Source: Thermoplasmata archaeon (lineage in GTDB: Archaea; Thermoplasmatota; Thermoplasmata; RBG-16-68-12; JAGMCJ01). Taken from it: DNA of 64,000 bases. The position numbers and the translations under genes were made by a program. A model generated the notes under the pieces. It worked only from the letters and a program-made list of their open reading frames with translations, ran no database searches and was not told the DNA's origin. Location of the stretch: the NCBI GenBank assembly GCA_023136265.1, contig JAGLRN010000017.1:7509-71508 (forward strand), written 5' to 3'. Shown here piece after piece: positions 3,502 through 46,837 of this stretch (the stretch's first letter is position 1; each line of letters starts with the position of its first letter).

Positions 3502-4212
3502 GTGCGGATAGGTGCCGTGGGCGACATTCATGGAGAGAAGTTCAAGGGGCCTTTTCTTGAGAGTCTCGCGGAGACCAAGGACCTAGATATGTTCCTCATC
3601 GCGGGCGATCTGACGGATGGGAGCGAGGTAGAGGTCTTCAAGAACATCCTGTCACTGATCGAGGGGAGTCTCAGCTGTCCGATAGTCTGTGTCTTCGGCA
3701 ACGAGGAGTACGAGCAGGACAGGGCGTCAATGAGCGAGAACGATGGAACGGTCTTTCTCGATGACGAGAGCGTTCGGATGGAGATTGACGGCCTCGACGT
3801 GAAGGTAGTGGGAAGCACGGGATGTCTGGACCGCCCGACATGGTGGCAGAGGACCAACATCTCGGGGATCTTCCAGAGGTTCAACCGCAGGTTGTCGATG
3901 ATCGACGAGATGCTCAGTGACGACGCATTCACGATTCTGCTCCTGCACTATGCTCCCACCTACGAGACCTTGGTCGGCGAGGAGGAAAGGTACTGGCCTG
4001 AGATGGGCTGCAGGAAGCTGGAGAGGGTCCTGCTCGAGAGGAGGCCGAGCCTCGTGTTCCACGGTCACGCTCACCGCGGGACGCCTGTCGCGGAGTTGAG
4101 GAGGAAGCAGCTCACTCTTTCCGACTTCGAGGGCGAAGAAAGGACGGTCCCCGTCTATAACGTCGCGTTCCCGCTGGTCAAGCACATCACCGTCGTCGAG
4201 ATCGATGCGTAG
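3502..4212 (+). CDS. Metallophosphoesterase (calcineurin-like, MJ0936/YfcE family)
   Basis: GTG start. Motifs GDIHGE, AGDLTD, GNEEY and FHGHAHRG. Confidence 0.75.
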   Translation: MRIGAVGDIHGEKFKGPFLESLAETKDLDMFLIAGDLTDGSEVEVFKNILSLIEGSLSCPIVCVFGNEEYEQDRASMSENDGTVFLDDESVRMEIDGLDVKVVGSTGCLDRPTWWQRTNISGIFQRFNRRLSMIDEMLSDDAFTILLLHYAPTYETLVGEEERYWPEMGCRKLERVLLERRPSLVFHGHAHRGTPVAELRRKQLTLSDFEGEERTVPVYNVAFPLVKHITVVEIDA

Positions 4213-4283
4213 ACGTCCTTCCAGAGAGCGCTGCGAGAAAGGTTTAAGTGAAATCCCTGGTATCTTATCCGTTGAAGGTGCGC

Positions 4284-5387
4284 ATGGAGTCAGAACCCGA
4301 GGACAAGGAGAAGAAGGACCGGAAGAGGAAATGGATCCGTTCCATCCTCTTCCTGCTCCGGGACCTGGGCGTCGCTGCGCTGATCGTGGGGATCATTCTT
4401 CTCTCTCTGTTTCTCTACACGGGTAACTGGCCTCCCATGGTCGTCGTCGAGAGCAAGAGCATGCAGCACAGCGACACCGAGAGTTTCGTTGGAGTCATAG
4501 ACACTGGCGACCTTGTCCTCGTTCAGAATGCACCTTCAAGCTCGGACATAATCACGTACGTGGAGGGTCGAGCCTCGGGATACGGCACTTACGGCGAGTT
4601 CGGTGACGTCATCATTTACAAAGAGGGAGGGCACTTCGAAGCCAAGAGCATCATACATCGTGCACTAATCCGATTGGATTGGAACGAATCGAGCGGGACC
4701 ATTGACATCCCCGATCTGGACAGATTGGAACTCGGCCCGGACTGGTCCGGGAAGATGTCGGGTGGCGAGGACGTCACGTCGCCCTATGGACTTGACGGTA
4801 CGATTACGCTCTACGACGTTGGCTTTGACGATGTGACTGTCACCCTTTCGATAAATACGTACATCTCCCAATTCGGTCCAAGCAACCAGAACGGCAGTGC
4901 GTTTGTTGCCTTGGGAGACAACAACGGAGGCCGCACCGATCCCCATATAATCAGGCAGGAGTGGATTGAGGGAAGGGCGAGGGGCGAGATCCCCTGGTTC
5001 GGGTTGCTGAAGCTCACTCTTTTCAGGGACTCTGGAGCTCCGTGCTGCAGCGAGATATACGATTCTGCTGCCCCGCGGAACAGCTGGGACTCGCTTCTGA
5101 TTGCGATAGTACTGATAATCGCTGTTCCGATCGCTCTGGATTTCGGCATCAGCTATGCTCTGGAGTTCCGTAGGAAGCGCAGGGAAGCGGCGGAAGAAGC
5201 ACCTTCTGAGGCAACAGGTGAGACTACTGAACCGGAAGCGACCGAGCCCGAAACGCCGCTGGAAGAAGAGGCGGAGAAGGAAGAGACGCTCGACGAGCCC
5301 GAATCGCTCGATGCAGAGACCGAGGAACAGGTGGAAGAGCCTCGGAGCGTTCAGGAGCCCGGAACTGACGAGGGGGAGCCCGAGTAG
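4284..5387 (+). CDS. Signal peptidase I (archaeal Sec11/S26B type) with a long inserted region and an acidic C-terminal tail
   Basis: N-terminal TM, VVVESKSMQHS (Ser region), GDLVLVQN and GDNNGGRTDPH boxes. Second TM near the C-terminus followed by an E/T/P-rich tail. The track ORF starts at 4248 (GTG); ATG at 4284 lies ~40 nt after TATA-like aaaggtttaagtg. Confidence 0.65.
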   Translation: MESEPEDKEKKDRKRKWIRSILFLLRDLGVAALIVGIILLSLFLYTGNWPPMVVVESKSMQHSDTESFVGVIDTGDLVLVQNAPSSSDIITYVEGRASGYGTYGEFGDVIIYKEGGHFEAKSIIHRALIRLDWNESSGTIDIPDLDRLELGPDWSGKMSGGEDVTSPYGLDGTITLYDVGFDDVTVTLSINTYISQFGPSNQNGSAFVALGDNNGGRTDPHIIRQEWIEGRARGEIPWFGLLKLTLFRDSGAPCCSEIYDSAAPRNSWDSLLIAIVLIIAVPIALDFGISYALEFRRKRREAAEEAPSEATGETTEPEATEPETPLEEEAEKEETLDEPESLDAETEEQVEEPRSVQEPGTDEGEPE

Positions 5388-33677: not shown

Positions 33678-35561
33678 CTACTCAACCGGTGGTTCTTCCT
33701 TCTTCCTGCGCTTGATGAGCACGAGCACAACCACGAGGGCCGCAACCACCATGAGCGCTATCGCCGCATACAAGACGTAGTCGAATCCCTTGTCATCTCC
33801 TTCATCATCCACGGGCGGATGGCTGTGCGGATCGTCGGGATCGGTCCCGTTCTGATACTCGACGAGGTTGGAGAACCCATCCCCATCTAGATCTTCATCG
33901 GCATCGGAGGGATCCAAGGGATCAAGAGAATTCGAGTGCTCCCAACCATCCGGCATCGTGTCCTCATCGGTGTCGTTGGACAGCGGATTCGTCCCAAGTC
34001 CATCCTCCGTCTCATCGGACAACCCATCACCGTCATCATCCAGGTCGCTGAAGTCTGGCTCACCGTCTCCGTCAGTGTCCAGGATGTCTCCCTCAAAGAT
34101 CTCCGTATGTGAGAGGTTCATGTCGACGCTCCTGTTGTGGTATGCGAAGAACAGAGTGGGGTGAGTAACCGTCACCATCGTGGTATTATGCACTCTCACA
34201 CCGTCTTCGTAGGTCTCGTGGGCAACCGTGACGTCTCGCACGTATCCCTGGACGTTGGTGACGTTGGAGAAAACGGATACACCGTTGTCTGTGATTTCAA
34301 CCGTGACATTATCGACTGGGTCCGACGTCTGGTGCTCGATGGTGTGGACGGTCAAGTAGTTCTTAACGAGGAGATGACAGGCTGGACAACCAGATCCTGC
34401 GGAGACCTTCCCGCCAAAAGTGGAGTTGACCACGACCAGAGCAGAACCTGACTCGAGGAAGAAATCCCTCAACGCCCCACTTATCGTCGAGTTGTAGAAA
34501 GTCGCGTCACCTTCGTAGGCGTACACGCCATCATCCACACCCGATATGTTTGCACCTTCGATGGTGCCAAACGAAGATCCGAGTCTCAGGCCAACAATGC
34601 TGCCTTCCGAGACATCGCCTAGGGACTGAACATTGGTGAAATCCAGGTGGAAGCCCACCTGCTCGTTTCCCCGGGCTACATTCATCCTGCTGATTAAGAG
34701 GCCGCTGCCCCAGGAATAGAAGCCAGCTACGTTATTGATGGCGGTGTTCGCAATCAGGACGGGTTGCGAAACAAAGGACCGCAGTCCATAAGTGTTGCCC
34801 TCCATCGTGTTGTTGCAGATAAGCGAAGTTGAGGATTCTAGTCGTATCCCGTGAGTGTTACTCATGAAAGTGCTGTTCTGGATTGTAACGTTCGTGTTTC
34901 GGACGTATGCACCGTTTTCCGTGTACGCGACCCTCACGTAGTTGAATACTGACGACTCACTGCCTGTGTCGAAGTACACGCCGTCCCAGTCCCCCTTCTG
35001 GGGCTCTGAGGAGTTCGAGGTGAAAATTATCATTTGGTTCCATGACCCCTGAGCGACCAAGGTTCCTGCAACAGAGAGCCTGGTTCCATTGTCAAACGCG
35101 ATAGTCGCTCCCGGATCGATGGTGAGTGTCGCATTAGCACCGACGACCAAATCCCCCTTGACAACCCTCGTGGAAGAGTCCCAGTGGTCGTCCACGACCT
35201 CGAAGGACACATTGTGGTAGAATACGTCAGGAAGCTGTGTATAGCTCGCGTTGACCCACCATGTCCCCGTCTGGTTAGCGGTGTAATTGCTTCTTGCGAG
35301 TCCGCCGTCGTCAGGATCGGATGCCACAGTGTGGACGAGCGAACCGGTAGGGTCGTACCACTGGAAATCCACATCGTTAAGCTCAGATGGCGGCGAGCCC
35401 GTGAAGTTCAGTAGCGCACCCGCCACGACCTTGGATTCGTTCACATAATCCGAGACCACTGTCACGATGTCGCTCACAGTAACAGCTGCTCTCACGTTGA
35501 CGCCGGCGAACGTGCTCGTGACAAGGATTGCCATGATGGTGATGGCAAGGCGGCTTTTCAT
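33678..35561 (-). CDS. Cell-surface right-handed beta-helix glycoprotein with TSP3-like Ca-binding D-rich repeats and a C-terminal TM anchor
   Basis: Signal peptide MKSRLAITIMAILVTSTFAG. More than 25 N-x-S/T sequons. PbH1-like repeats (NNTMEGNTYGLR, ANTAINNVAGF). DTDGDGEPDFSDLDDDGDGLSD repeats. C-terminal LYAAIALMVVAALVVVLVLIKRRKKEE. Confidence 0.75.
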   Translation of the reverse strand: MKSRLAITIMAILVTSTFAGVNVRAAVTVSDIVTVVSDYVNESKVVAGALLNFTGSPPSELNDVDFQWYDPTGSLVHTVASDPDDGGLARSNYTANQTGTWWVNASYTQLPDVFYHNVSFEVVDDHWDSSTRVVKGDLVVGANATLTIDPGATIAFDNGTRLSVAGTLVAQGSWNQMIIFTSNSSEPQKGDWDGVYFDTGSESSVFNYVRVAYTENGAYVRNTNVTIQNSTFMSNTHGIRLESSTSLICNNTMEGNTYGLRSFVSQPVLIANTAINNVAGFYSWGSGLLISRMNVARGNEQVGFHLDFTNVQSLGDVSEGSIVGLRLGSSFGTIEGANISGVDDGVYAYEGDATFYNSTISGALRDFFLESGSALVVVNSTFGGKVSAGSGCPACHLLVKNYLTVHTIEHQTSDPVDNVTVEITDNGVSVFSNVTNVQGYVRDVTVAHETYEDGVRVHNTTMVTVTHPTLFFAYHNRSVDMNLSHTEIFEGDILDTDGDGEPDFSDLDDDGDGLSDETEDGLGTNPLSNDTDEDTMPDGWEHSNSLDPLDPSDADEDLDGDGFSNLVEYQNGTDPDDPHSHPPVDDEGDDKGFDYVLYAAIALMVVAALVVVLVLIKRRKKEEPPVE

Positions 35562-35630: not shown

Positions 35631-37624
35631 CTACTTGCGGCCAGGGACGAGTCCCCAGTAACCTATGCTGTGCCCATACTCGTTGTTCAGGTGGTCAGCT
35701 ATCTCCGTCGCAGTCGCGTACTCGCCATTATCGTACAGGTCCATCAGGTGGTCCAGCGCTTCCGAGGCCGTCATCTCAGTTCCGTCGGGGAAGGTAACAA
35801 CATCATCGGAACCTACAGTCCCGCTGCCGACGTTGTATTCCCAAGCTGTGATCTGAAGCAGGGCCAACTCCCCCTGGTTGGCGCCTCTGCCTCCCCCTCC
35901 TCCCCCCGTGGGACAGATATCTCCTTCCCCGACCGTAATCGTGGTCGTAACGGTGGCCGAGCCACCATCATCATCGGTTACAGTGAGAGTGACTACATAC
36001 GTTCCAGGTGAGCTGTAAGTATGAGTCTGAGTGTCCTGGACATTGAGCGGCGGAGTAGTTCCGCCGAAGTAGGGCTCGTACGGACTCGAATCGGGATCGT
36101 TAGGCGGCACTCTGGAGGGGTCATAGTAGTAGGTCGTGGTCGTGACGTTGCTACCGTCTCCCCAATTCCATGTGAATGTCAGGTCATCGCTGCCTGGGTC
36201 TGTTGCCGATCCAACGAAGGTCAAAGGCGCACCTACGAGTGCCCCGATGTTGATATCAACGATCCAAGGCTCCACGTGAATGAAGTGCTCGCTGTCCCTC
36301 TCGATGGACTGCTGCACGTTGAAGGTGTGTTTTATCTTGCACTGTCCACCCTCCGCGAAGTCCAGGATTATCCAGACGGGATTGGCTCCCCACAGCTGTC
36401 CGTTGATGGGCTGATCGCCCATTATCGCGTCGTTGAGGTCCTCGTACGGATCGTATGTGACCACCGCGGTATAGTTGACGGAGTCACCCGCATCCAGGCG
36501 AATCGTGATACCCTGGTCCCCAGAGCTTGGATTGAGCATCGGGTCCCCAGGCCACCTCTCTACCTCGATGTTGGCGGCTATGTCATCGTACTGGCCGGTC
36601 TCCCTATCGTAGTTCTCGTAGAGAGTGAGCTCCACATTGTGCCATTTCTCTCCAGTGACTCTCAAGAAAACCGTGACCTCGACGTACGCTCCCTCTATCG
36701 TTGCAGTCGGATCCACATTCAGTACGTCCACATAGCCGAAAGCCGTCCCCGTCAGGCCATCATCATCCGTCACGGTGAGTTTCACTTCGGTGTAGTAGTC
36801 ATCGTACCAGATGAACGTCACGATCGGGCCCGTCGCGTCGACATCGTTGTCGTAGATGCCATCGCCATCACTGTCGACAAACACGTCAAGGTCCCATTCG
36901 TAGCTGACTATCGTGCCGTCAGGGTCGGAAGAACCGGAACCGTCAAGTGTGACCAGATCGCCCTCGTGGATTGTTTCCGGGGTTATGACGATATCAGGCA
37001 CCGGCGGCTCCTCATCCTCGGGTATCATTGCCGAGGAAATGAATGTCAGGTCATGACCGTTCGGGGTCTTGTAACCCGTAACGGGGTCGAACGCGTCGAA
37101 GTGGATCTCGAAGTACTCATCTGGATCTGGGCCCAGCGTCACTGTCGTGTCGAGTCTCACGGTAGTCTTGCCAGGAAGTACCTCAGGCTCGTAGAAGTAT
37201 ATGTCCCAGATTGCTTCGTCTCCTGAGTATACATGATGCTTCCCTCCCCAGGCCTCATCAAACGGATTGAACTCCGTGTTCCCGAAGTCAGGGAGGTATG
37301 ACGCTTCACCCTCAATGTCTATGCTCACAAAGTCATCCGATGTCGTCCAGTTGTGAATCGCAATGGCGATTCTCAAATCGGTGAGATCATCATTTCCTCT
37401 GTTCTCGACAATCATCTCAAAAGTGCAGACAACATCTGGGCCAAAGTCACAATAGGTAACCCACCCACCAGCTTTCCAACCTCCGCCTTTCGCTCTTTCG
37501 CCAGGATCAGCGTTCAGCCAGATGTGGGCACCACCCCCACCGCCTGCAAGAACTGCCGGGAGTAGGGCAAGCATCATCATAGAAGCGCAGGCTAGAGCTA
37601 CGGTTCTCTTCACGTTCTCTCGCA
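35631..37624 (-). CDS. Large secreted PKD-domain protein, paralog 2 of 3, with a distinct C-terminal domain after a GGGGGG linker
   Basis: Start MRENVKRTVALACASMMMLALLPAVLA (ATG about 37624 after a ggaggaaggtg SD); the track ORF is extended to 37919. PKD segments (YEWDLD..., FTWNWGDGS...TVTDDDGGSATV). GEKWHNVELTLYEN block shared with paralog 1. Confidence 0.75.
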
Positions 37625-37650
37625 TGTCTTTCACCTTCCTCCAAACCCCA

Positions 37651-37740
37651 AGAGGCTGTGTCCGCGCCGAGTTGGAGCGTGCGTGTGGGCGAAAAGACGC
37701 CCCTCCTCGACGCCTCGTTGGACAGCCTCCCCCTTTTTTT
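37651..37740 (-). promoter_or_regulatory. GC-rich nested stem-loop element plus A8/T8 tract in the leader region of PKD paralog 2 (possible structured 5' UTR or small ncRNA)
   Basis: gaggctgtgtcc pairs with ggacagcctc, enclosing gggcg-aaaaga-cgccc and gcgccgag/ctcgacgc. It is followed by cccccttttttttg and lies between a TATA-like tatataaaag (37772) and the minus-strand ATG. Confidence 0.35.
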
Positions 37741-37928
37741 GGAAGCTTATGCACTCCACAAATGAGTCTGGGGAGTATATAAAAGCGGACTGGAAACCAT
37801 CCTGAATGATACCACATACCAGGCCATGTACCACGCGGTTGAAATCTGGATTGAGGCATAAAAGCCCAGCCTCGCTCTTCCGGCAATGCGAAAGTAATAT
37901 ATTCGGCGTAGTCAATCATTAGACAAGT

Positions 37929-40460
37929 GTGGGCATGAAATTTCGAGCACTTCTAGTCCTGACGGTCATCATCATTCTGTCCTGTTTTGCGAAGGACGTC
38001 TCGGCAGCCCTGACTGTGACCAACGTCACAGTGACCATGGATCGCTCCACTTTCTATGCCAACCAGTCAACTGCTACTGCAACAGCTGTCATAGAGTACA
38101 CGGCGGGCGCAGCGAAGGATATCGGTGATGTTAGTTTCACTTGGTTCAGACCAGATTGGAGCATAGCCGCCATCAGGATAGACACGGGAAAGGATGATGC
38201 GAACGCCACAAGCGCCATAACGGTCGACATGGGCGGCACATGGCACGTGAACGCCACTTACGTGAACCAAACAGACCAGTTCGACAACGTATCATTTGAA
38301 GTGGTGAGCGCTGGGGTCGTCGTTGTTTCTGACATGGTTCTAGTGGTGAACGCCCCCTATTTCGAATTGGGTGAAACGGTTGTCGCAACTTCGGCTCTTG
38401 ATTACGCAGGGAATGTCAGTCTCTTCGTGGCAGTCGATTTCACATGGATCGACTCCTCGAGCGCAGTTGTGAGGTCGATGAATGTTGTTCCCAATTCAAC
38501 TGGTGTCGCGATAGACACCTGGGGATCCGACAGCGTGGGCCCTTTCCTCATGTATGCGAACTACACGGGAGACGCACCGGTTTCCAGGTCGGTCAGCTTC
38601 GAGGTTTTCCCCACGAGGGTGAGGACCTGGCATAATCTCAGTGTCGTCGTGGATGAGGTCTGGGACTTGGCTGGAGAGCCGTACGGTGTCTGTGAAAACA
38701 TCACAATCGAGGCGGGATCAACGCTCACAATTGAAGCGGGCGTCACCGTGAGATTCTGCGAAGACACTCACATGACCGTGGACGGCGCGCTGGTCTCCGA
38801 TGGATCTCTGGATTCTTTCGTGAACTTCACCGCATTCGGCTTCTTCCCGCCAAAGGGTTACTGGGGTGGCATCATCGTGAACCCCTCCAGCGGTAGCTCC
38901 AGTAGCATCACCCACTCCCGGGTGAGCTTCGCATCAATCGGCATGCTGATAACCTCTGCAAGCCCAACCATCGAGAGAAGCTCGTTCGAGAATATAAGCA
39001 TCGCGGCCATCCAGTTCGATAATGCCACTGCGAATGCTGAGTTCAACTCGTTCGACGATGTCGGCAGAGGGATCTCCGCATCGGCTTCGGACATCGGGAT
39101 GAGGTTCAACACCTTCTCCAACGTCATGATGGGATTGGCCCTGATCGATTCCAACGCCACGCTACACGGAGACACCATCTTCAATTCGACGTCATTCGGA
39201 ATCCACGCATTCAACAGCTCCATTTCCGCTTCCCAGATCAACATCTCGCTCTCCGGCGGTAGCGCGATCAGACTGCAGTCCCAATCGCTTGCGATCATCG
39301 AATCATCTGTCATTGAGAACAGCTGGTACGGTGTCGATGCCTTCTCATCGACCTTCCACGTGAACGAGAGCAGCCTACTCACGAACGACAACGCTGTCAG
39401 GGCGAACGACGGGCAGGGAGACCTGGTTAACACGAGCATCCTCAACTCCGTGGACTTCGACTTCACGTTGGAAGGTGGAAGCTCAGTGATCGCACTCAAC
39501 TGCACGCTCAATGACAGCAAGGTCCAGGTGCTTCCAGCTTCGCGGCTCACCGTGAAGTACTTCTTGGATGTGCAGGTTGCAGACGAGGGTACCGGTGATC
39601 CAATCGGGAACGCCTTTGTGGAGATTCTGGATGATGGCTCCAGTATCTTCTCTTCGAGGACACCTTCGAGCGGCAGGGTGAGATGGATTCCCGTCACTGA
39701 CAGGATATTTGACGGAGCCGACACGCCAACAAAGCACAATATAACGATCAAGATCAGAAAGGATGGATATGACATCGTGGAGCCCGAGAGGACTGTCGAT
39801 ATGTACACATCCCGTCTGGAGGTCTTCCTCGCTACGGAGGCCATTCAAGACATATGGGAGGAGGTTCTCGATCCATTTCTCCTAATGATCCTCTTGATTG
39901 TCATCGCAATTGTGGTCGCCGCCGCCATCATGGTTCGAAGGAGGACAAGGGAGGAAGAGGAGATTGTCCCTGAGAAGAAGGTCCGCAAACCTACTGACTA
40001 CACCCTTAAGAAGGGCACGAGCTATCTTGTCGCTGGGGAGAAACCCGATCTCGCTTTCGGGATATTCTCGAATGCCATCAAAGGCGGAGCTAGCGGACTG
40101 TGCATCACAAGGACGTATCCCGACGAGGTCTCCGAAGAATACGACGTGGGAGATGCCCCGATTCTATGGCTCTCACGAGACTCCAGGCGGGCCAACATTA
40201 GTCCCACGAATTTGGGCGCGATAATCCTTGAGGCGCAGAGGTTCCTCAAGAAGGAGGAGGGCAAGGAGACGATTGTGATGCTCGATGGCATCGAGTACCT
40301 CATCGTCCAGAACGATTTCTCCAAGGTCATCAAGTTCGTTCAGACCTTGAAGGATACGATTTCCGTGGCCGGGTCCAAGCTCCTCATCCCGTTCAACTTG
40401 GCCGCATTGGAGGAATCGAGGCGGGCGTTGCTGACCCGCGACTTGGAGCTATTGGAGTGA
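37929..40460 (+). CDS. Cell-surface beta-helix glycoprotein with a TM segment and a C-terminal cytoplasmic DUF835-like domain
   Basis: Signal peptide MGMKFRALLVLTVIIILSCFAKDVSA. N-terminal domain paralogous to the 33678-35561 protein (TWHVNATY...NVSFEVV). Many PbH1-like repeats. TM LLMILLIVIAIVVAAAIMV. Tail with GLCITRTYP...WLSRD...LDGIEYLIVQNDF...LIPFNLAAL...LLTRDLELLE, matching my recollection of DUF835. Confidence 0.75.
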   Translation: MGMKFRALLVLTVIIILSCFAKDVSAALTVTNVTVTMDRSTFYANQSTATATAVIEYTAGAAKDIGDVSFTWFRPDWSIAAIRIDTGKDDANATSAITVDMGGTWHVNATYVNQTDQFDNVSFEVVSAGVVVVSDMVLVVNAPYFELGETVVATSALDYAGNVSLFVAVDFTWIDSSSAVVRSMNVVPNSTGVAIDTWGSDSVGPFLMYANYTGDAPVSRSVSFEVFPTRVRTWHNLSVVVDEVWDLAGEPYGVCENITIEAGSTLTIEAGVTVRFCEDTHMTVDGALVSDGSLDSFVNFTAFGFFPPKGYWGGIIVNPSSGSSSSITHSRVSFASIGMLITSASPTIERSSFENISIAAIQFDNATANAEFNSFDDVGRGISASASDIGMRFNTFSNVMMGLALIDSNATLHGDTIFNSTSFGIHAFNSSISASQINISLSGGSAIRLQSQSLAIIESSVIENSWYGVDAFSSTFHVNESSLLTNDNAVRANDGQGDLVNTSILNSVDFDFTLEGGSSVIALNCTLNDSKVQVLPASRLTVKYFLDVQVADEGTGDPIGNAFVEILDDGSSIFSSRTPSSGRVRWIPVTDRIFDGADTPTKHNITIKIRKDGYDIVEPERTVDMYTSRLEVFLATEAIQDIWEEVLDPFLLMILLIVIAIVVAAAIMVRRRTREEEEIVPEKKVRKPTDYTLKKGTSYLVAGEKPDLAFGIFSNAIKGGASGLCITRTYPDEVSEEYDVGDAPILWLSRDSRRANISPTNLGAIILEAQRFLKKEEGKETIVMLDGIEYLIVQNDFSKVIKFVQTLKDTISVAGSKLLIPFNLAALEESRRALLTRDLELLE

Positions 40461-40489: not shown

Positions 40490-41215
40490 ATGGAAGGCAT
40501 GAAATCATACAGAACCTTCGTCAAAGGCCTCGATGAGGAAATCGAAGGGGGCATCCCCCAGGGTCATGTTGTTCTTATCGCGGGTCCTCCAGGGACGATG
40601 AAGTCGAGCTTGGCGTACAGCATGCTCTACCACAACGCCGCCAAGAAGAAGATTCGCGGCATGTACTTCACGCTCGAGCAGAGCAGGAAGAGTCTAGAGT
40701 TCCAGATGTCTCGTCTGAAAATGGATCCGAAGCTGGTCATGGACACTCTCAGGGTACAGGACCTGTCGAGGATAAGAAAAGGAATAGACGAGGTCAGGGG
40801 AAGACCCAGGTTCGGCAGGGAGGTCGAACGCCCCTGGTTGGAGGTTCTGAAGAAGATTCTCGAGGACATGAGAGATACTGAGAAGTACGAACTCCTCGCG
40901 ATAGACTCTCTGCCCATCCTCGAGATAATCTCAAAGCTCAAAGACAGAAGGATTCAGCTCTTCCACTTCTTCGAGTGGCTCAGGGACCTCGGGCTGACCA
41001 CGTTGATCATCACAGAGACATCACCTCAGATAGGTGAGGTCCACGACGAGGACTTCCTCGCCGACGGAGTCATTAATATACTCATGGAGAAGGTCGGAGA
41101 CATAGATGTCTACCGACGGATAAGGATCGTGAAGCTCAGGGGAGTGAACCACAACACTGGGTTCTTCACGCTCGAGTACAAGCAGGACCGGTTCCAGGTC
41201 TCTCAGGTGATCTAG
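40490..41215 (+). CDS. KaiC-like/RecA-superfamily ATPase with a non-canonical P-loop (AGPPGTMKSS)
   Basis: KaiC-domain layout: GGIPQGHVVLIAGPPGTMKS, FTLEQS, Walker B LLAIDSL. The Gly preceding the P-loop Lys is replaced by Met. Confidence 0.8.
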   Translation: MEGMKSYRTFVKGLDEEIEGGIPQGHVVLIAGPPGTMKSSLAYSMLYHNAAKKKIRGMYFTLEQSRKSLEFQMSRLKMDPKLVMDTLRVQDLSRIRKGIDEVRGRPRFGREVERPWLEVLKKILEDMRDTEKYELLAIDSLPILEIISKLKDRRIQLFHFFEWLRDLGLTTLIITETSPQIGEVHDEDFLADGVINILMEKVGDIDVYRRIRIVKLRGVNHNTGFFTLEYKQDRFQVSQVI

Positions 41216-42444
41216 GGCTCCTCGAAGAGATTCATGTATTTTATCACGGCAAGCTCTTCAGGCGTGTAGTCCTTCCTCTTTTCGAGCCCTTCTAGACCCT
41301 TTGTCGAGATCAGCTTGAACGACAGCGGGTGCCCCTCCGTCAAGCTGAAAATCCTCTCAAACTCCTTCTTCTCGATCTTCCTTTTGAGGAGCTTCTTGCA
41401 GCTCCTCTTGTCAAGCCCATCAAGGATGACCTCGCTAAGCGCCCCCCTCGCGAGCAGTTCCCTTTCCTTCGGTATGTCCCCGTTCTCGGAGATTAATACA
41501 ACCTTGGCCTCCGAGCTCCTCTCGACAACCTGGAGGACGTGATAGAATACCGTCGCCAGTTCAGGGGACATCTCCGCAAGGTCGTCGAAGAACAGCATGG
41601 CACGCGTGTCCTTGAGTCTCGTTGCGAGCGCGCCCAAAGCACTCCTCAGGTCTCTTCCCCCGCCTTCGAGATAGTCGCCCAATCCGGGCTTTCCAAGTTG
41701 CCCGAGGAAGGAAGAGAATGCGCCCAGAAGTGTCTCGGGGGTGTCCCACTGCCTGAAGGAGTACCAGAACAGGTTCAATCGGTTCTTGGACGCCGCATAG
41801 ACACGAGCCGCAAGCGATGACTTGCCCATCCCCTCAGCCCCGCGGATAGCCAGTATCTTGCCCTCAGATGCTTTCGTCCAGTCCTCGATCTCCTCCATCT
41901 CCTTCTCTCTTCCGTAGAACGGTTCCGTGAGAACCAGACCCTCCGCGAAGGACAGGAATCTCTCCTTCTTCTCGGAAGGCCTCATCTCCAGGTCCTCTAT
42001 GTTCAGTATGCCGCTGTCGTCCGTCCTACAGATGACCTCCGTTAGCGTGTGGCGAACCCCGACGTGCTTGTCGATGTCGAGGAGAGAGACCTCCTTGATG
42101 GAATCATCGTCCTTCCGTATCTTCACCCTCTTCTTCAGGACCTCCTCTTTGACTCGCTCGGCGAGACTGTATCCGTCCTCCGTGTAACCGTAGACCTTTC
42201 GCTTCCTCAGCTGTCCTCTCACCCTTCCCATGGCCTCGGTGACCAGGTCCTCCTTCTTCAGCTGAGAGATGGCCCTCGAAACGTGATTGACACGGATGCC
42301 CGTGGAGCCAGCGATGCCCTCCTGGGTGAGCCCAGAATGCACGTCCAGGAGATCCCTCGGCTGAGGAGTCTCCCGCAGATGAAGGATTATCTTCTCCTTG
42401 GCGGTCAGGTCATTCCTAGTGAGCCATTCTCCCCTTTTGACCAT
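41212..42444 (-). CDS. wHTH plus archaeal AAA ATPase (Arch_ATPase/PF01637-like) putative regulator
   Basis: N-terminal HTH (LTQEGIAGSTGIRVNHVSRAISQLKKEDLV), Walker A IRGAEGMGKSSLA, Walker B MLFFDDL. Confidence 0.7.
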   Translation of the reverse strand: MVKRGEWLTRNDLTAKEKIILHLRETPQPRDLLDVHSGLTQEGIAGSTGIRVNHVSRAISQLKKEDLVTEAMGRVRGQLRKRKVYGYTEDGYSLAERVKEEVLKKRVKIRKDDDSIKEVSLLDIDKHVGVRHTLTEVICRTDDSGILNIEDLEMRPSEKKERFLSFAEGLVLTEPFYGREKEMEEIEDWTKASEGKILAIRGAEGMGKSSLAARVYAASKNRLNLFWYSFRQWDTPETLLGAFSSFLGQLGKPGLGDYLEGGGRDLRSALGALATRLKDTRAMLFFDDLAEMSPELATVFYHVLQVVERSSEAKVVLISENGDIPKERELLARGALSEVILDGLDKRSCKKLLKRKIEKKEFERIFSLTEGHPLSFKLISTKGLEGLEKRKDYTPEELAVIKYMNLFEEP

Positions 42445-42502: not shown

Positions 42503-44803
42503 CTAGGGTGCATAGAGGTCCACGGTGACGCTGATGAGCGTCTCACCACCGTCATCGTCAGCGACCGTGATGACCAAGCTGTACGATCCCTCGGCCCAGT
42601 AGGAGTGACTGGCGCTTATCCGTACGTCGAATGGGTAGTTGCCATATGGGCTGTTTGGCGGGTCTGGTGCCAGGCCGTCATTGAAGTACGTCTCAACGTC
42701 GCTTGATCCATCGCCCCAGTCAATGGAGACGATTATGTCGTCACTTCCAGGATCGTGAATGTCAGTAGACAGAGAGACCTCGCCAATCGCGATGTTGTTC
42801 CCGTTGTTGATATCGTCAGCCACCGTCTTCACGTCCTCGAACTCGCTCTCGTTCGTCGAGGTCATGAGGATGTCTTCCGCCCACACAAGGATGTCCCCAA
42901 GGGTCGTTTCGTTCTGTCCGGGAGGCCTTGCCTGCGTCGTGAAGTTCAGCTTCCCGGACGCTACGTTCAACCACAGGGCCATCAACTGACCCTGGGCCCT
43001 GGAGTGCACCTCCTCTCCGGACGCCCATTCGAGCACAGTGCAGACATCATCCTCCGTGCTGACGTACGCGAAGAGGTCGGAGTTCGAGCTTATGAAGAGT
43101 ATCAGGTCATCGGTGATGCCCGTGTGGTTGCCGTAGGGTTCTGTGACGGTGCACTGATGGTTCCAGAAACCCTGCGTCCTGGGCTCGAGTACCGTGACAG
43201 AATAGACGAAGTTCCCTACAGTCGGATCCACGTTCTGCACCAGCAGAGGCACGTCCACGGTTTCCGAGTCCCCGTCATCGTCCACGACCGTGACCTGGAT
43301 TCCGAGGTTGAAGTCATCCCCATAGACATGGGAATCTGCGAAGTCGCCCGTTGCATCAGGTTCCTGGTTCTCTTCGGCGACGAGCGGTGCGCTGGTCTGA
43401 CCGTCGTTCCAGTCAATAAGGGCCGTGTGCGTGTCAAGCCATCCAGGGTCGTAGAAGGTCACGTGGACAGTGAACGATTGCCCCTCATCGATGGTCGACG
43501 GCTGGACGGTGATGGTGTCTATTGTCGGTGCGACATTGAAGCACCGGTAGTGCGTGGTTGTCATATCGCTCATCTCGTCATCGGAGACCTCCACGGTGAC
43601 ATCCGTCTCGTAAGGGCCGTCCCCGCAGGTCAGCTGAACAATTGGAAGAGAGGACCAGCTCGTGTCCCAAGCACCGTCGTGATCAAGGTCCCAGCGGTAC
43701 TTGAGCAGGTCGCCGTTCGGGTCGGAGCTACCGCCCGCATCGAGTAGGATGTCCGCCCCTTCATCCACCTCATACGGACCTCCGGCGTTGGCGACAGGCG
43801 GCTTGTTCACTCTGTACACCTCGATCAGCGGTTTCGCTGAATGGGAGTCATTCGACCCATCGTGGTCCACGTCCGCATATGCCCGCGGCAGGAAGTACCT
43901 TCCAGCCAACAACTTGGGAGTAACGAGCGTGTAGCTCAGCAACACCGTGTGGTATGGCGTGGGAGTCAAGTCATCATGGAAGCTAACGTCCGCCGCGGAC
44001 ACATTGACCTTCCATCTGATCGTCTGCGATCCGTCTGGATTGCCCACAACGGCATCAGGTGCCGGAACGATGGACCCCGGAACGTAGGAGTAGCCCATTG
44101 GAATAGTGTCCTCGATCACCGAGTTCACCGCGTGTGGGGGATTCGTGACACCCGGCCCGTAGATGGCCAGATTGGTGACAGTGAGCGTGATGGTGATGTT
44201 GTGGTTTATGGCATCCTCGACGTTCTTCCACAGAGGGGTCTTGCCCACAACGAGCGTAGGATGCAGGTCGAGGTAGTCCCATATCTCGTCGTTCGTGGGG
44301 TTTGGACCCTGAGCGATCTCCTGAAGTGCATAGGGCATTATCTCTCCCCCGAGGAAGATCGTAGCGCCATATTGGGTCCACTGCCTGTGTTCTGTGCACC
44401 ACCACACGATCGACCCTGGAGGCGCACCATCGCCGTACTCGTAGTCTAGGTAAGAATACGGGTCTACGACGGCACTCGTCAGAGCTCCATCCTGAGTCGT
44501 CTGAGGATTCCAAGATTCCAGGGGATGAGGACTCAAGAGCATCATCATCTCGTTTATGTTGACCTTGATGCTTCCGGAATTGGTCACCCTGAACACCGAC
44601 GGATAGCCGTACTGATTGACCTCCGACGTGATTTGGGCCCATCCTTTGGCGTAAGCTTCCCAGATCTTGATCATGTCAGGCATAGGCTGAGGTCCCAATG
44701 GGTCCTCCAGTCTCGCACTCGGTTCGGTTGCGGGTTCCGACACTGCGATCGCGGACGAAAGTAGCAGTATCGCGAACACCGACATCGTGGCGATTTTCTT
44801 CAC
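42503..44803 (-). CDS. Large secreted PKD-domain protein, paralog 3 of 3
   Basis: Signal peptide MKKIATMSVFAILLLSSAIAVSEP. PKD segments (KYRWDLDHDGAWD..., IDWGDGSSDVETYFNDG...ITVADDDGGETL). C-terminal block homologous to paralog 1. Confidence 0.8.
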   Translation of the reverse strand: MKKIATMSVFAILLLSSAIAVSEPATEPSARLEDPLGPQPMPDMIKIWEAYAKGWAQITSEVNQYGYPSVFRVTNSGSIKVNINEMMMLLSPHPLESWNPQTTQDGALTSAVVDPYSYLDYEYGDGAPPGSIVWWCTEHRQWTQYGATIFLGGEIMPYALQEIAQGPNPTNDEIWDYLDLHPTLVVGKTPLWKNVEDAINHNITITLTVTNLAIYGPGVTNPPHAVNSVIEDTIPMGYSYVPGSIVPAPDAVVGNPDGSQTIRWKVNVSAADVSFHDDLTPTPYHTVLLSYTLVTPKLLAGRYFLPRAYADVDHDGSNDSHSAKPLIEVYRVNKPPVANAGGPYEVDEGADILLDAGGSSDPNGDLLKYRWDLDHDGAWDTSWSSLPIVQLTCGDGPYETDVTVEVSDDEMSDMTTTHYRCFNVAPTIDTITVQPSTIDEGQSFTVHVTFYDPGWLDTHTALIDWNDGQTSAPLVAEENQEPDATGDFADSHVYGDDFNLGIQVTVVDDDGDSETVDVPLLVQNVDPTVGNFVYSVTVLEPRTQGFWNHQCTVTEPYGNHTGITDDLILFISSNSDLFAYVSTEDDVCTVLEWASGEEVHSRAQGQLMALWLNVASGKLNFTTQARPPGQNETTLGDILVWAEDILMTSTNESEFEDVKTVADDINNGNNIAIGEVSLSTDIHDPGSDDIIVSIDWGDGSSDVETYFNDGLAPDPPNSPYGNYPFDVRISASHSYWAEGSYSLVITVADDDGGETLISVTVDLYAP

Positions 44804-45691: not shown

Positions 45692-46837
45692 TCAGAGTCT
45701 GCGGGAGCGCTTCCTCGTATCCAACCGTCTTTCCTTGTCCTCTCTGACGAAATCCTCGATCTGGTCCATCAGACCATCCAGTGCCTTGTGTATGTTCCAG
45801 TCGAAGTGCCGCGCGTAGAACAGTCCCCTGTCGGTCGCCAGTCTTGCCCTCATCGTGTACTTGCTCGTGTCCCCTTTCGAGTGATGCTGCGCGACGTGTA
45901 TATTCAGGATCTTAGGCGAGAGAATCTCGCCTGTCTTGTCTATCGTCTTCTGGATGCGCTCGTACATGGCGTCATAGATCTCGGGCTCCTCCTCAAGCCC
46001 CGTGATCTGGACGAAGACCTCCTCGGCCTTCCCAAATGAGGCGATGAGCTCTATGATGTCCACCTGAGTGACTATGCCTACTGGCTCCCTGTTTTCTGCA
46101 ACAAGGATGCTCGATACGTCCTTCTCTATCATCAGGTCGATCGCCTCGGACAGCCTGGCATCTGGCGGGACAGTGATGGGAGGCGTCCTCATCAGGCTCC
46201 CCACCTCAATCTCGAGGGCCTCCTTCTCGCCGACGACCTCACCTCTCGTCTCGCTCTCCCTCTCTCGGGCGAAGTAGTCCGCTAGGTCCCTTATGCCAAC
46301 GACACCAATGAGGTGCCCGCTGCTCTCGCAGACCGGAACTGACCTCTCATCCAAGTCCTTCATCAGGGCGCGGGCATCGTGCAGGGTGTGCGTCTCCAAC
46401 ACGCACTGCGGTGAGTGGGACATTATGCTGCTCACATCGACCTCGGACAGCATCTTCATCCCGCGCACGGACTCTATCAGGTCGATTCTCGAGATAAAGC
46501 CAAGGAGCTTCCTCTTCGACGTGACTGGAATGCCCCTCGATCCCGTCGACATCATCATCTCCGCGACTTCGGGAACGGAGTCCGTCTCCCCAATCCTGGG
46601 CGGGGCGACCATTATCCTCTCGACCTTCGTGCTCATCGGCAGACTCCTTCTCTTCGTGAGCGTGTTGTAGCTGACGATCCCGACAAGCTTCTTCCTTTCG
46701 ACGACAGGAACCTCGTGAACGCCGTGCCTCTTCATCTTGCCCAGGACCTCGGAGAGGCTGTCCTCTGGAGCGGCCACGACCGGCTCCTTTGACATGACGT
46801 CCTTTGCTTTGAGATCGTTGATATCGGTGTCCTTCAT
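45692..46837 (-). CDS. Four CBS domains fused to a C-terminal ribosome hibernation factor (HPF/RaiA/YfiA)-like domain
   Basis: Four CBS motifs (for example GVHEVPVVERKKLVGIVS, GIPVTSKRKLLGFISRIDL). The C-terminus VQITGLEEEPEIYDAMYERIQKTIDKTGEILSPKILNIHVAQHH...YTMRARLATDRGLFYARHFDWNIHKALDGLMDQIEDFV aligns position by position with E. coli HPF (LNITGNNVEITEAL...LHVNGGEIHASAEGQDMYAAIDGLIDKLARQL). Confidence 0.7.
   Translation of the reverse strand: MKDTDINDLKAKDVMSKEPVVAAPEDSLSEVLGKMKRHGVHEVPVVERKKLVGIVSYNTLTKRRSLPMSTKVERIMVAPPRIGETDSVPEVAEMMMSTGSRGIPVTSKRKLLGFISRIDLIESVRGMKMLSEVDVSSIMSHSPQCVLETHTLHDARALMKDLDERSVPVCESSGHLIGVVGIRDLADYFARERESETRGEVVGEKEALEIEVGSLMRTPPITVPPDARLSEAIDLMIEKDVSSILVAENREPVGIVTQVDIIELIASFGKAEEVFVQITGLEEEPEIYDAMYERIQKTIDKTGEILSPKILNIHVAQHHSKGDTSKYTMRARLATDRGLFYARHFDWNIHKALDGLMDQIEDFVREDKERRLDTRKRSRRL

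Follow-up and report, generated by a model that had tools for sequence, protein, structure and literature searches.

A deep clade of KaiC-like proteins in Thermoplasmatota appears, from alignment, to have permanently replaced the glycine that precedes the Walker A lysine (position K-1) by a bulky hydrophobic residue, which is usually methionine. The gene studied here, at positions 40490 to 41215 of the window (the whole 64,000-nucleotide stretch of DNA that was analyzed), is a member of this clade. Our preferred reading, which we consider probable on comparison with its relatives, is that the product is a functional, nucleotide-dependent KaiC-like ring ATPase that acts in signaling and carries a lineage-specific variant of the P-loop.

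The gene, its family and its predicted fold

The gene and its motifs are located as follows.

40490..41215, plus strand: gene for a single-domain (RecA-fold) KaiC-like ATPase of 241 aa, of the Met-type P-loop clade (open reading frame list, Pfam, AF2 and Foldseek)
40583..40609, plus strand: variant Walker A, G32-P-P-G35-T-M37-K38-S39-S40 (sequence)
40676..40681, plus strand: catalytic-glutamate site E63-Q64, in FTLEQS (alignment to KaiC tfEE)
40790..40825, plus strand: basic insertion, aa 101 to 112, EVRGRPRFGREV (alignment of 142 representatives, ortholog alignment and AF2)
40892..40909, plus strand: Walker B, L135-L-A-I-D139-S140 (LLAIDSL), with D139 at 40904-40906 (sequence and alignment)
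41132..41140, plus strand: trans-acting pair K215-L-R217 (alignment to KaiC KfRG/KlRG)

An earlier note on this DNA had called the protein a KaiC-like ATPase, and this assignment is upheld by a match to PF06745 (KaiC) of 120.8 bits (7.3e-35, residues 8 to 231), the Pfam gathering cut-off being 26.6 bits. The same note's reading of the motifs also stands: the P-loop glycine before the lysine is replaced by methionine (GPPGTMKS, with the ATG codon of M37 at 40598-40600), Walker B is retained with D139, and the catalytic-glutamate site contains a single acidic residue, E63 being followed by Q64. A second ATG (M4, 40499) is a possible true start of the gene, because most orthologs are 238 aa long; the choice between 40490 and 40499 has no effect on the P-loop motif.

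The gene product is a single-domain, KaiC-CI-like RecA-fold protein and not an ortholog of the circadian KaiC. It has one domain of 241 aa, as against the CI-CII arrangement of about 500 aa, and it scores below the cut-offs of the circadian equivalog models (89.1 versus 408 and 44.4 versus 546.25 for NCBIfam NF006799 and TIGR02655); NCBIfam models of archaeal KaiC subgroups also gave matches far under their cut-offs. Identity with ArlH was rejected, as the NCBIfam model of that protein scored 45.4 bits against a cut-off of 215 and the neighbors are a DUF835 sensor, an HTH-ATPase and PKD proteins, not an arl operon; no archaellum genes were found near the KaiC-like gene. A RadA/Rad55 recombinase was rejected likewise, since the RadA/Sms model TIGR00416 scored far too low (28.8 versus 403) and the protein consists of the 241-aa core domain only, without extra DNA-binding modules. 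The NCBI label "RAD55 family ATPase" reflects COG0467 naming, with no tested function behind it.

The AF2 model, built from an alignment of 44 sequences, has a pLDDT of 93.5 and a pTM of 0.91, and the 10-residue blocks that cover the P-loop reach 97 to 99; helix alpha-1 begins at K38. The only low-confidence stretch is the insertion at aa 101 to 112 (pLDDT about 62), which falls in gap columns in most of the 142 representatives, is present in close orthologs and is specific to the ortholog group of the window's gene. In Foldseek comparisons the TM scores were 0.79/0.88 to PH0186 (2ZTS), the best structural match, and 0.82/0.87 to KaiC CI (4TL7). The predicted fold is KaiC CI-like. The resemblance to KaiC CI (4TL7, 1TF7) extends from the fold to the Asp-Ser of Walker B, the catalytic glutamate after beta-2, the K-x-R pair and the presence of acidic residues where the CII phospho-sites lie; the protein differs in being a single domain and not CI-CII, in having Met and not Gly at K-1 and in having EQ and not EE. 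By sequence, the best solved relatives are KaiC proteins (at most 79 bits) and the single-domain Pyrococcus proteins PH0186 and PH0284. Like the window's protein, PH0186, PH0284 (2DR3) and SSO2452 (2W0M) are single-domain archaeal proteins whose precise role is obscure; they are distant from it, since PDB chains reach only 21 to 24% identity and 60 to 79 bits at most, whereas members of the clade score at least 115 bits.

Residues at K-1 across the clade

Few residues in biology are as conserved as the glycine before the Walker A lysine. In the window's gene (codons ggt cct cca ggg acg atg aag tcg agc, 40583-40609) the motif departs from the canonical GxxGxGK[ST] at K-1 only, and the remaining positions fit. 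The same departure was present in all of the 120 best homologs, which contain GTMKS in the form G[PTH]PGTMKS at 51 to 95% identity and whose named hosts are Thermoplasmata/Methanobacteriota MAGs. An exhaustive HMMER scan of 1.84 billion representatives of 50% clusters returned 3471 matches at E <= 1e-3, of which 133 were at E <= 1e-30. Among the best 150 of these 3471 representatives (33 to 61% identity), 149 have a residue other than Gly at K-1 and one (P0228) has no recognizable motif. In the alignment of 142 representatives, position 37 is M in 114, L in 18, Y in 6, F in 3 and R in 1, and is never G. Of the best 150 representatives, 110 are less than 50% identical to any of the 86 related loci that we examined, and the clade may reach beyond Thermoplasmatota. 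Those loci contribute 172 gene copies with M in 168, L in 4 and G in none. The gene 98% identical to that of the window (JAGMCJ010000016.1), found in an independent MAG (locus L007), also has a non-Gly residue at K-1. A second search, for which a Methanomassiliicoccus-type paralog was the query, added 116 further Met sequences. The tally for 396 distinct relatives, with identities down to about 32% and named hosts that are all Thermoplasmatota, is M 357, L 18, F 7, Y 7, R 3 and G 0, the other 4 being truncated gene calls. In a GTDB scan with one genome per species, a relative was encoded in 324 genomes, and the best 80 of these are all Thermoplasmatota.

The earlier note had proposed alignment with orthologs as a check on whether the Gly-to-Met change is conserved in the lineage. 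It is, with no Gly among the 396 relatives, and on this evidence Met marks a large clade and not a single gene, so that the change extends more widely than that note supposed. Across the alignments, K-1 is seen to be selected for M and less often for L, Y or F, and never for G. Proteins with L, Y or F occur in a scattered fashion, and Met prevails among their closest relatives, a pattern that indicates recurrent swaps between hydrophobic residues without return to Gly. Compared pairwise, the representatives have a median identity of about 35%, and the substitution at K-1 is therefore old. The boundary of the clade is sharp. A divergent member used as the query (P0239, GTYKS, 32% identical) gave 28 matches of at least 124 bits, all with M or Y; the next one scores 65 bits and carries a canonical GGAGTGKS. 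The nearest out-of-clade relative with a readable motif (P0423) has a canonical GTGKS, and the aligned KaiC chains have GTGK or GCGK at the P-loop. The Met-type clade is large, belongs to Thermoplasmatota by its named relatives and is apparently undescribed; no description of the motif or of a family with a bulky K-1 residue was found in the literature, although a prior mention in Makarova et al. (2017) is possible.

Two explanations specific to methionine were discarded. The ATG in the P-loop could be an internal start codon, and three database gene calls do begin there; these calls look truncated, and the L, Y and F variants argue against such a role. It appears instead that the P-loop Met is wrongly taken as the gene start by some gene callers. 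A redox switch through Met sulfoxide is unlikely as a general explanation because Leu, Tyr and Phe recur in scattered lineages. There is also a practical consequence for annotation, as filters that recognize P-loops by the motif GxxxxGK[ST] will miss the entire clade.

Genes around the KaiC-like ATPase

The neighboring genes and the relevant parts of their products are as follows.

35631..37919, minus strand: gene for a PKD-repeat surface protein, a possible regulated target (Pfam PKD_4/PKD)
37929..40460, plus strand: gene for a membrane sensor of 843 aa, 29 bp upstream of the KaiC-like gene (Pfam and hydropathy)
39876-39935, plus strand: the only transmembrane helix of the sensor, aa 650 to 669 (hydropathy)
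40050-40442, plus strand: DUF835 (inactivated KaiC) domain of the sensor, aa 708 to 838 (Pfam, 1.7e-29)
41212..42444, minus strand: gene for an HTH-ATPase of 410 aa, with a winged HTH and an ATPase_2/AAA_16 (STAND-like) domain, convergent with the KaiC-like gene (Pfam)
42503..44803, minus strand: gene for a PKD-repeat surface protein, downstream of the HTH-ATPase gene (Pfam PKD_4)

The upstream sensor consists of an N-terminal signal or anchor, a right-handed beta-helix ectodomain (Pfam Beta_helix, 3e-9), the transmembrane helix and a cytoplasmic C-terminal DUF835 domain. Galperin et al. (PMC5847659) class DUF835 as an inactivated KaiC (iKaiC) domain. The domain in the sensor aligns in register with the profile of the clade (hhalign E 2e-4, probability 47%), and its gene shares an operon with that of its homolog, the KaiC-like ATPase. 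The two differ in the P-loop, which is deleted in DUF835 ("VAGE----KPDLAF" versus "VAGPPGTMKSSLAY" in the clade), whereas the KaiC-like protein keeps all the phosphate-binding and catalytic residues except the Gly at K-1. The sensor domain serves as an internal control for what decay of a P-loop looks like. As cited in PMC5847659, Makarova et al. (2017) proposed that KaiC-like ATPases and iKaiC domains form archaeal signaling hubs; the layout of such a module, a KaiC-like gene beside a DUF835 gene fused to an input domain, is found here.

Downstream, the stop codons of the KaiC-like and HTH-ATPase genes overlap (41212-41215). As the two genes are convergent, they are not co-transcribed. The Walker A of the HTH-ATPase is canonical (GAEGMGKS). 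Among 32 distinct ortholog loci, at identities of at least 48%, 27 have a convergent HTH-ATPase gene that touches or overlaps the KaiC-like gene at its 3' end, and 16 have a DUF835 gene immediately upstream; 3 more loci are incomplete on that side. The PKD arrangement seen at 35631..37919 is repeated in two loci (L001 and L003), and a PKD protein occupies the position equivalent to 42503..44803 in L001 and L006; L003 has an ammonium-transporter gene at this position, followed by a PKD/Kelch protein. Paralog groups at 40 to 46% identity have neither the DUF835 nor the HTH-ATPase partner. They sit in arrays of three to four Met-clade genes, some of whose products are fused to an N-terminal Zn-ribbon and TPR repeats, and one array (L053) is preceded by an iKaiC-small-GTPase fusion. 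Of the immediate neighbors profiled by Pfam, none was seen to resemble KaiB. A defense system was rejected, since three proteins compared with PADLOC gave only marginal, P-loop-level matches (E 2e-4 or worse, <19 bits).

The earlier note had raised the possibility that the protein needs a partner, an idea with which these conserved neighbors, the DUF835/iKaiC sensor upstream and the convergent HTH-ATPase, are in keeping. In the ortholog group of the window, the KaiC-like ATPase may act as the nucleotide-state switch of a signaling module. The beta-helix ectodomain of the membrane protein would sense an extracellular cue, the cytoplasmic DUF835 domain would dock on, or co-assemble with, the KaiC-like ATPase, and the output may run through the convergent HTH-ATPase regulator to the nearby genes for surface proteins (PKD and beta-helix). 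We infer this pathway, from sensor through DUF835 and ATPase to HTH-ATPase, from the conserved gene neighborhood and the published idea of KaiC/iKaiC hubs.

The active site and the handling of nucleotide

Apart from K-1, the active site is well preserved in the alignment of 142 representatives. The Walker A residues G32, G35 and K38 are each present in 142/142, as is S or T at position 39, and position 40 is nearly always S or T in the clade. In Walker B, D139 is invariant (142/142) and S140 is found in 131 (92%). E63 is kept in 132 (93%), K215 in 140 (99%) and R217 in 138 (97%), and R154, T170, E176, D192, G193 and H221 are nearly invariant besides. We take E63-Q64 to be the equivalent of E77-E78 of KaiC CI, with E63 as the first CI catalytic glutamate, and K215 and R217 to correspond to K224 and R226 of KaiC CI, the trans-acting phosphate sensor and Arg finger. 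At position 64, 110/142 members have Q and 26/142 have E, so that EQ is typical of the clade; this second catalytic glutamate being Gln in about 77% of members is a point against a working ATPase. In one sub-branch Met occurs together with EE, and hence Met is not coupled to the loss of the second glutamate. The IST segment of KaiC domain 2 aligns with F-L-A191 followed by a gap, which makes Ala191 the counterpart of Ser431 and leaves Thr432 in the gap; 91/142 representatives have Ala at position 191. As the CII phospho-sites are absent, the domain resembles CI (the ATPase) and not CII (the autokinase).

This pattern of conservation is the opposite of decay. Outside K-1 the active site is under strong purifying selection; the catalytic residues are conserved at 93 to 100%, which means that selection maintains a site able to bind phosphate and to catalyze. 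The earlier note had favored a pseudo-ATPase or altered nucleotide handling, and the data do not support the pseudo-ATPase, as K-1 is bulky and hydrophobic without reversion to Gly while the other catalytic residues remain at 93 to 100% in the 142 representatives. If the protein is a ring ATPase, as we think probable, Mg-NTP would still be bound through P-loop backbone amides together with K38 and S39, oligomerization would bring K215 and R217 to the site of the neighboring subunit, and ATP would be hydrolyzed, probably slowly as by KaiC CI. The Met side chain may then tune affinity or rate and not abolish function.

What a residue other than Gly at K-1 costs depends on the protein family. Ras and Rheb no longer bind nucleotide when the equivalent position is changed to Ala (G15A and G18A, respectively; bioRxiv 10.1101/2025.04.22.650033); therefore, Met could strongly weaken binding. 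The active MCM2-7 proteins have Ala or Ser at K-1 (GDPGTAKS or GDPSTSKS; PMC2952866, Table 1). MCM2-7 and the archaeal MCM (GDPxx[A/S]KS) resemble the Met-type clade as a natural, family-wide loss of the K-1 Gly in active ATPases (PMC2952866), but they have an AAA+ and not a RecA/KaiC fold, and their K-1 residue is small (Ala or Ser), not Met, Leu, Tyr or Phe. In the literature found, no precedent for a bulky K-1 residue was documented, the natural precedents being the small Ala and Ser of MCM. Eurotiomycete Kti12 is a further example of a deviant Walker A conserved in a lineage: with a natural Lys-to-Leu change it still hydrolyzes ATP, at reduced affinity (PMC7363723). It differs in that the Lys itself is altered, and in its fold class (DxTN kinases) and biology.

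The most serious competitor to a working ring ATPase, which was the main reading of the earlier note and which we consider appreciably less likely, is that the Met P-loop binds ATP with negligible hydrolysis and that the protein signals by ATP-dependent oligomerization or partner binding. Glu-to-Gln changes in KaiC are a classic ATP-state trap, the second catalytic glutamate is Gln in 110/142 members, and Met could slow catalysis further. However, the binding-only subunits of ring ATPases usually lose the catalytic glutamate and the trans-acting Lys and Arg, whereas E63 (93%) and K215/R217 (97 to 99%) are as conserved here as the residues for binding. The occurrence of Met with EE in a sub-branch also counts against this alternative, as Met is there untied from loss of the second glutamate. 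Slow autophosphorylation may possibly occur as well, as in the KaiC-like ArlH. ArlH/FlaH, another single-domain KaiC-like protein, acts through ATP binding and autophosphorylation that alter its interaction with ArlI (PMC8978795). Such a switch on a partner, set by nucleotide state or autophosphorylation, is a plausible functional analogy, from which the Met-type protein differs by its P-loop variant and its sub-cut-off score.

A phosphate site obstructed by the bulky residue, with the protein a nucleotide-free, purely structural adaptor, is improbable. The loss of nucleotide binding upon Gly-to-Ala substitution in Ras and Rheb would favor such a scaffold. However, an empty site should drift, as in the adjacent DUF835/iKaiC domain with its deleted P-loop, and G32, G35, K38, S/T39 and D139 are invariant despite a median identity of about 35%. 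We would give just as little credence to an altered ligand or reaction, in which the protein would handle another NTP or a phosphorylated partner, or would perform phosphotransfer and not hydrolysis. Several differences from canonical KaiC do cluster near the P-loop (M37, S/T40 and Q64), but the fold and motifs are otherwise as in KaiC CI, and the position of the CII Ser431 is occupied by Ala191 with Thr432 in a gap. Errors of sequencing or assembly can be dismissed, as can a mutation private to this genome, since hundreds of independent assemblies carry the same residue and a change from Gly (GGN) to Met (ATG) takes two base changes.

A working ATPase with a tuned P-loop remains our preferred reading. 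We would go one step further only tentatively, to a Met-type Walker A, GxxG[TS][MLYF]K[ST], that is a distinct, heritable phosphate-binding loop and defines a Thermoplasmatota-specific family of KaiC-like signaling proteins with unusual nucleotide handling. If so, the family would comprise sensor-coupled singletons as well as the arrays of three to four paralogs with their TPR and Zn-ribbon fusions, and the bulky K-1 residue may confer very low affinity, an ultra-slow, timer-like turnover or partner-gated binding, beyond the range of canonical P-loops. The finding will be somewhat surprising to P-loop specialists and by itself opens no major question. Even so, an old and large clade with Met, Leu, Tyr or Phe at K-1 and its catalytic residues kept is a natural experiment on the tolerance of the P-loop, and it cautions that the status of pseudo-enzyme should not be assigned from a single motif deviation. 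The clade also marks a distinct set of putative, uncharacterized KaiC-like signaling ATPases in Thermoplasmatota, including Methanomassiliicoccales. The latter are methanogens of the gut and of wetlands.

Convergent ends of the KaiC-like and HTH-ATPase genes

At window positions 41212-41215 (c-ta-g), the KaiC-like gene (+) and the HTH-ATPase gene (-) converge with overlapping stop codons. Abutment of the two 3' ends, or an overlap of 4-8 nt, is also present in related loci from other assemblies (L001, L003, L006-L029 and L032), and the tail-to-tail arrangement is conserved in orthologues down to approximately 50% identity. Such conservation points to transcriptional interference or a functional link between the two genes, and not to a chance arrangement.

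Insertion and P-loop of the KaiC-like protein

The KaiC-like protein carries a basic insertion, EVRGRPRFGREV, at residues 101-112 (window 40790-40825), which is limited to its close orthologue group and is the sole low-confidence stretch of the AF2 model (pLDDT of ~62). This insertion may act as a loop for partner binding or regulation.

Within the Met clade (Thermoplasmatota KaiC-like ATPases with Met, or more rarely L, Y, F or R, before the Walker A Lys), relatives of the distant member P0239 (P0405-P0421) form a sub-branch that combines GTPGTMKT with the canonical 'EE' catalytic pair; hence, the Gly-to-Met change is independent of the Glu-to-Gln change. Three database gene calls (P0371, P0377 and P0388) begin at the P-loop Met itself ('MKSS...'): the Walker A ATG is sometimes mistaken for a start codon by gene callers, yielding a shortened protein.

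Paralogue arrays in other genomes

Same-orientation arrays of three to four Met-clade KaiC paralogues occur in other Thermoplasmata and in Methanomassiliicoccales, at the following loci:

L034, L036, L037, L050, L051, L053, L054, L075, L077, L080, L082; L039-L086
L053 5971-12170, example array
L055 3704-6696, example array

N-terminal Zn-ribbon and/or TPR extensions are frequent on the middle or last genes (products of 488-658 aa), and arrays with such extended members hint at hetero-oligomeric assemblies. Directly upstream of the four-gene array in L053 lies a gene for a 391-aa fusion protein (4011-5186, +). One part is an inactivated KaiC domain that lacks a P-loop (LLLFSDKPTEKRLF), and the other is an Arf/Ras-like small GTPase with GPFNAGKST.

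Wider neighbourhood

33678-35561 (-), 627-aa ORF, paralogue of the DUF835 sensor's beta-helix ectodomain
45692-46837 (-), ORF, putative counterpart by position of the CBS-domain gene in L001 and L006
62728-62813 (+), tRNA-Ser (GGA), the sole tRNA gene of the window

The 627-aa ORF matches the ectodomain at 29-37% identity (tblastn, E of 4e-32), and no DUF835 match was found within it. With the PKD-repeat proteins, it makes this region a surface-protein gene cluster. L001 (11039-12181) and L006 (12403-12711) each have a CBS-domain gene in synteny with the module, and in both a histone-deacetylase-family gene adjoins that gene. If the ORF at 45692-46837 of the window is assumed to be the counterpart of the CBS-domain gene, the conserved neighbourhood would extend past the three core genes.
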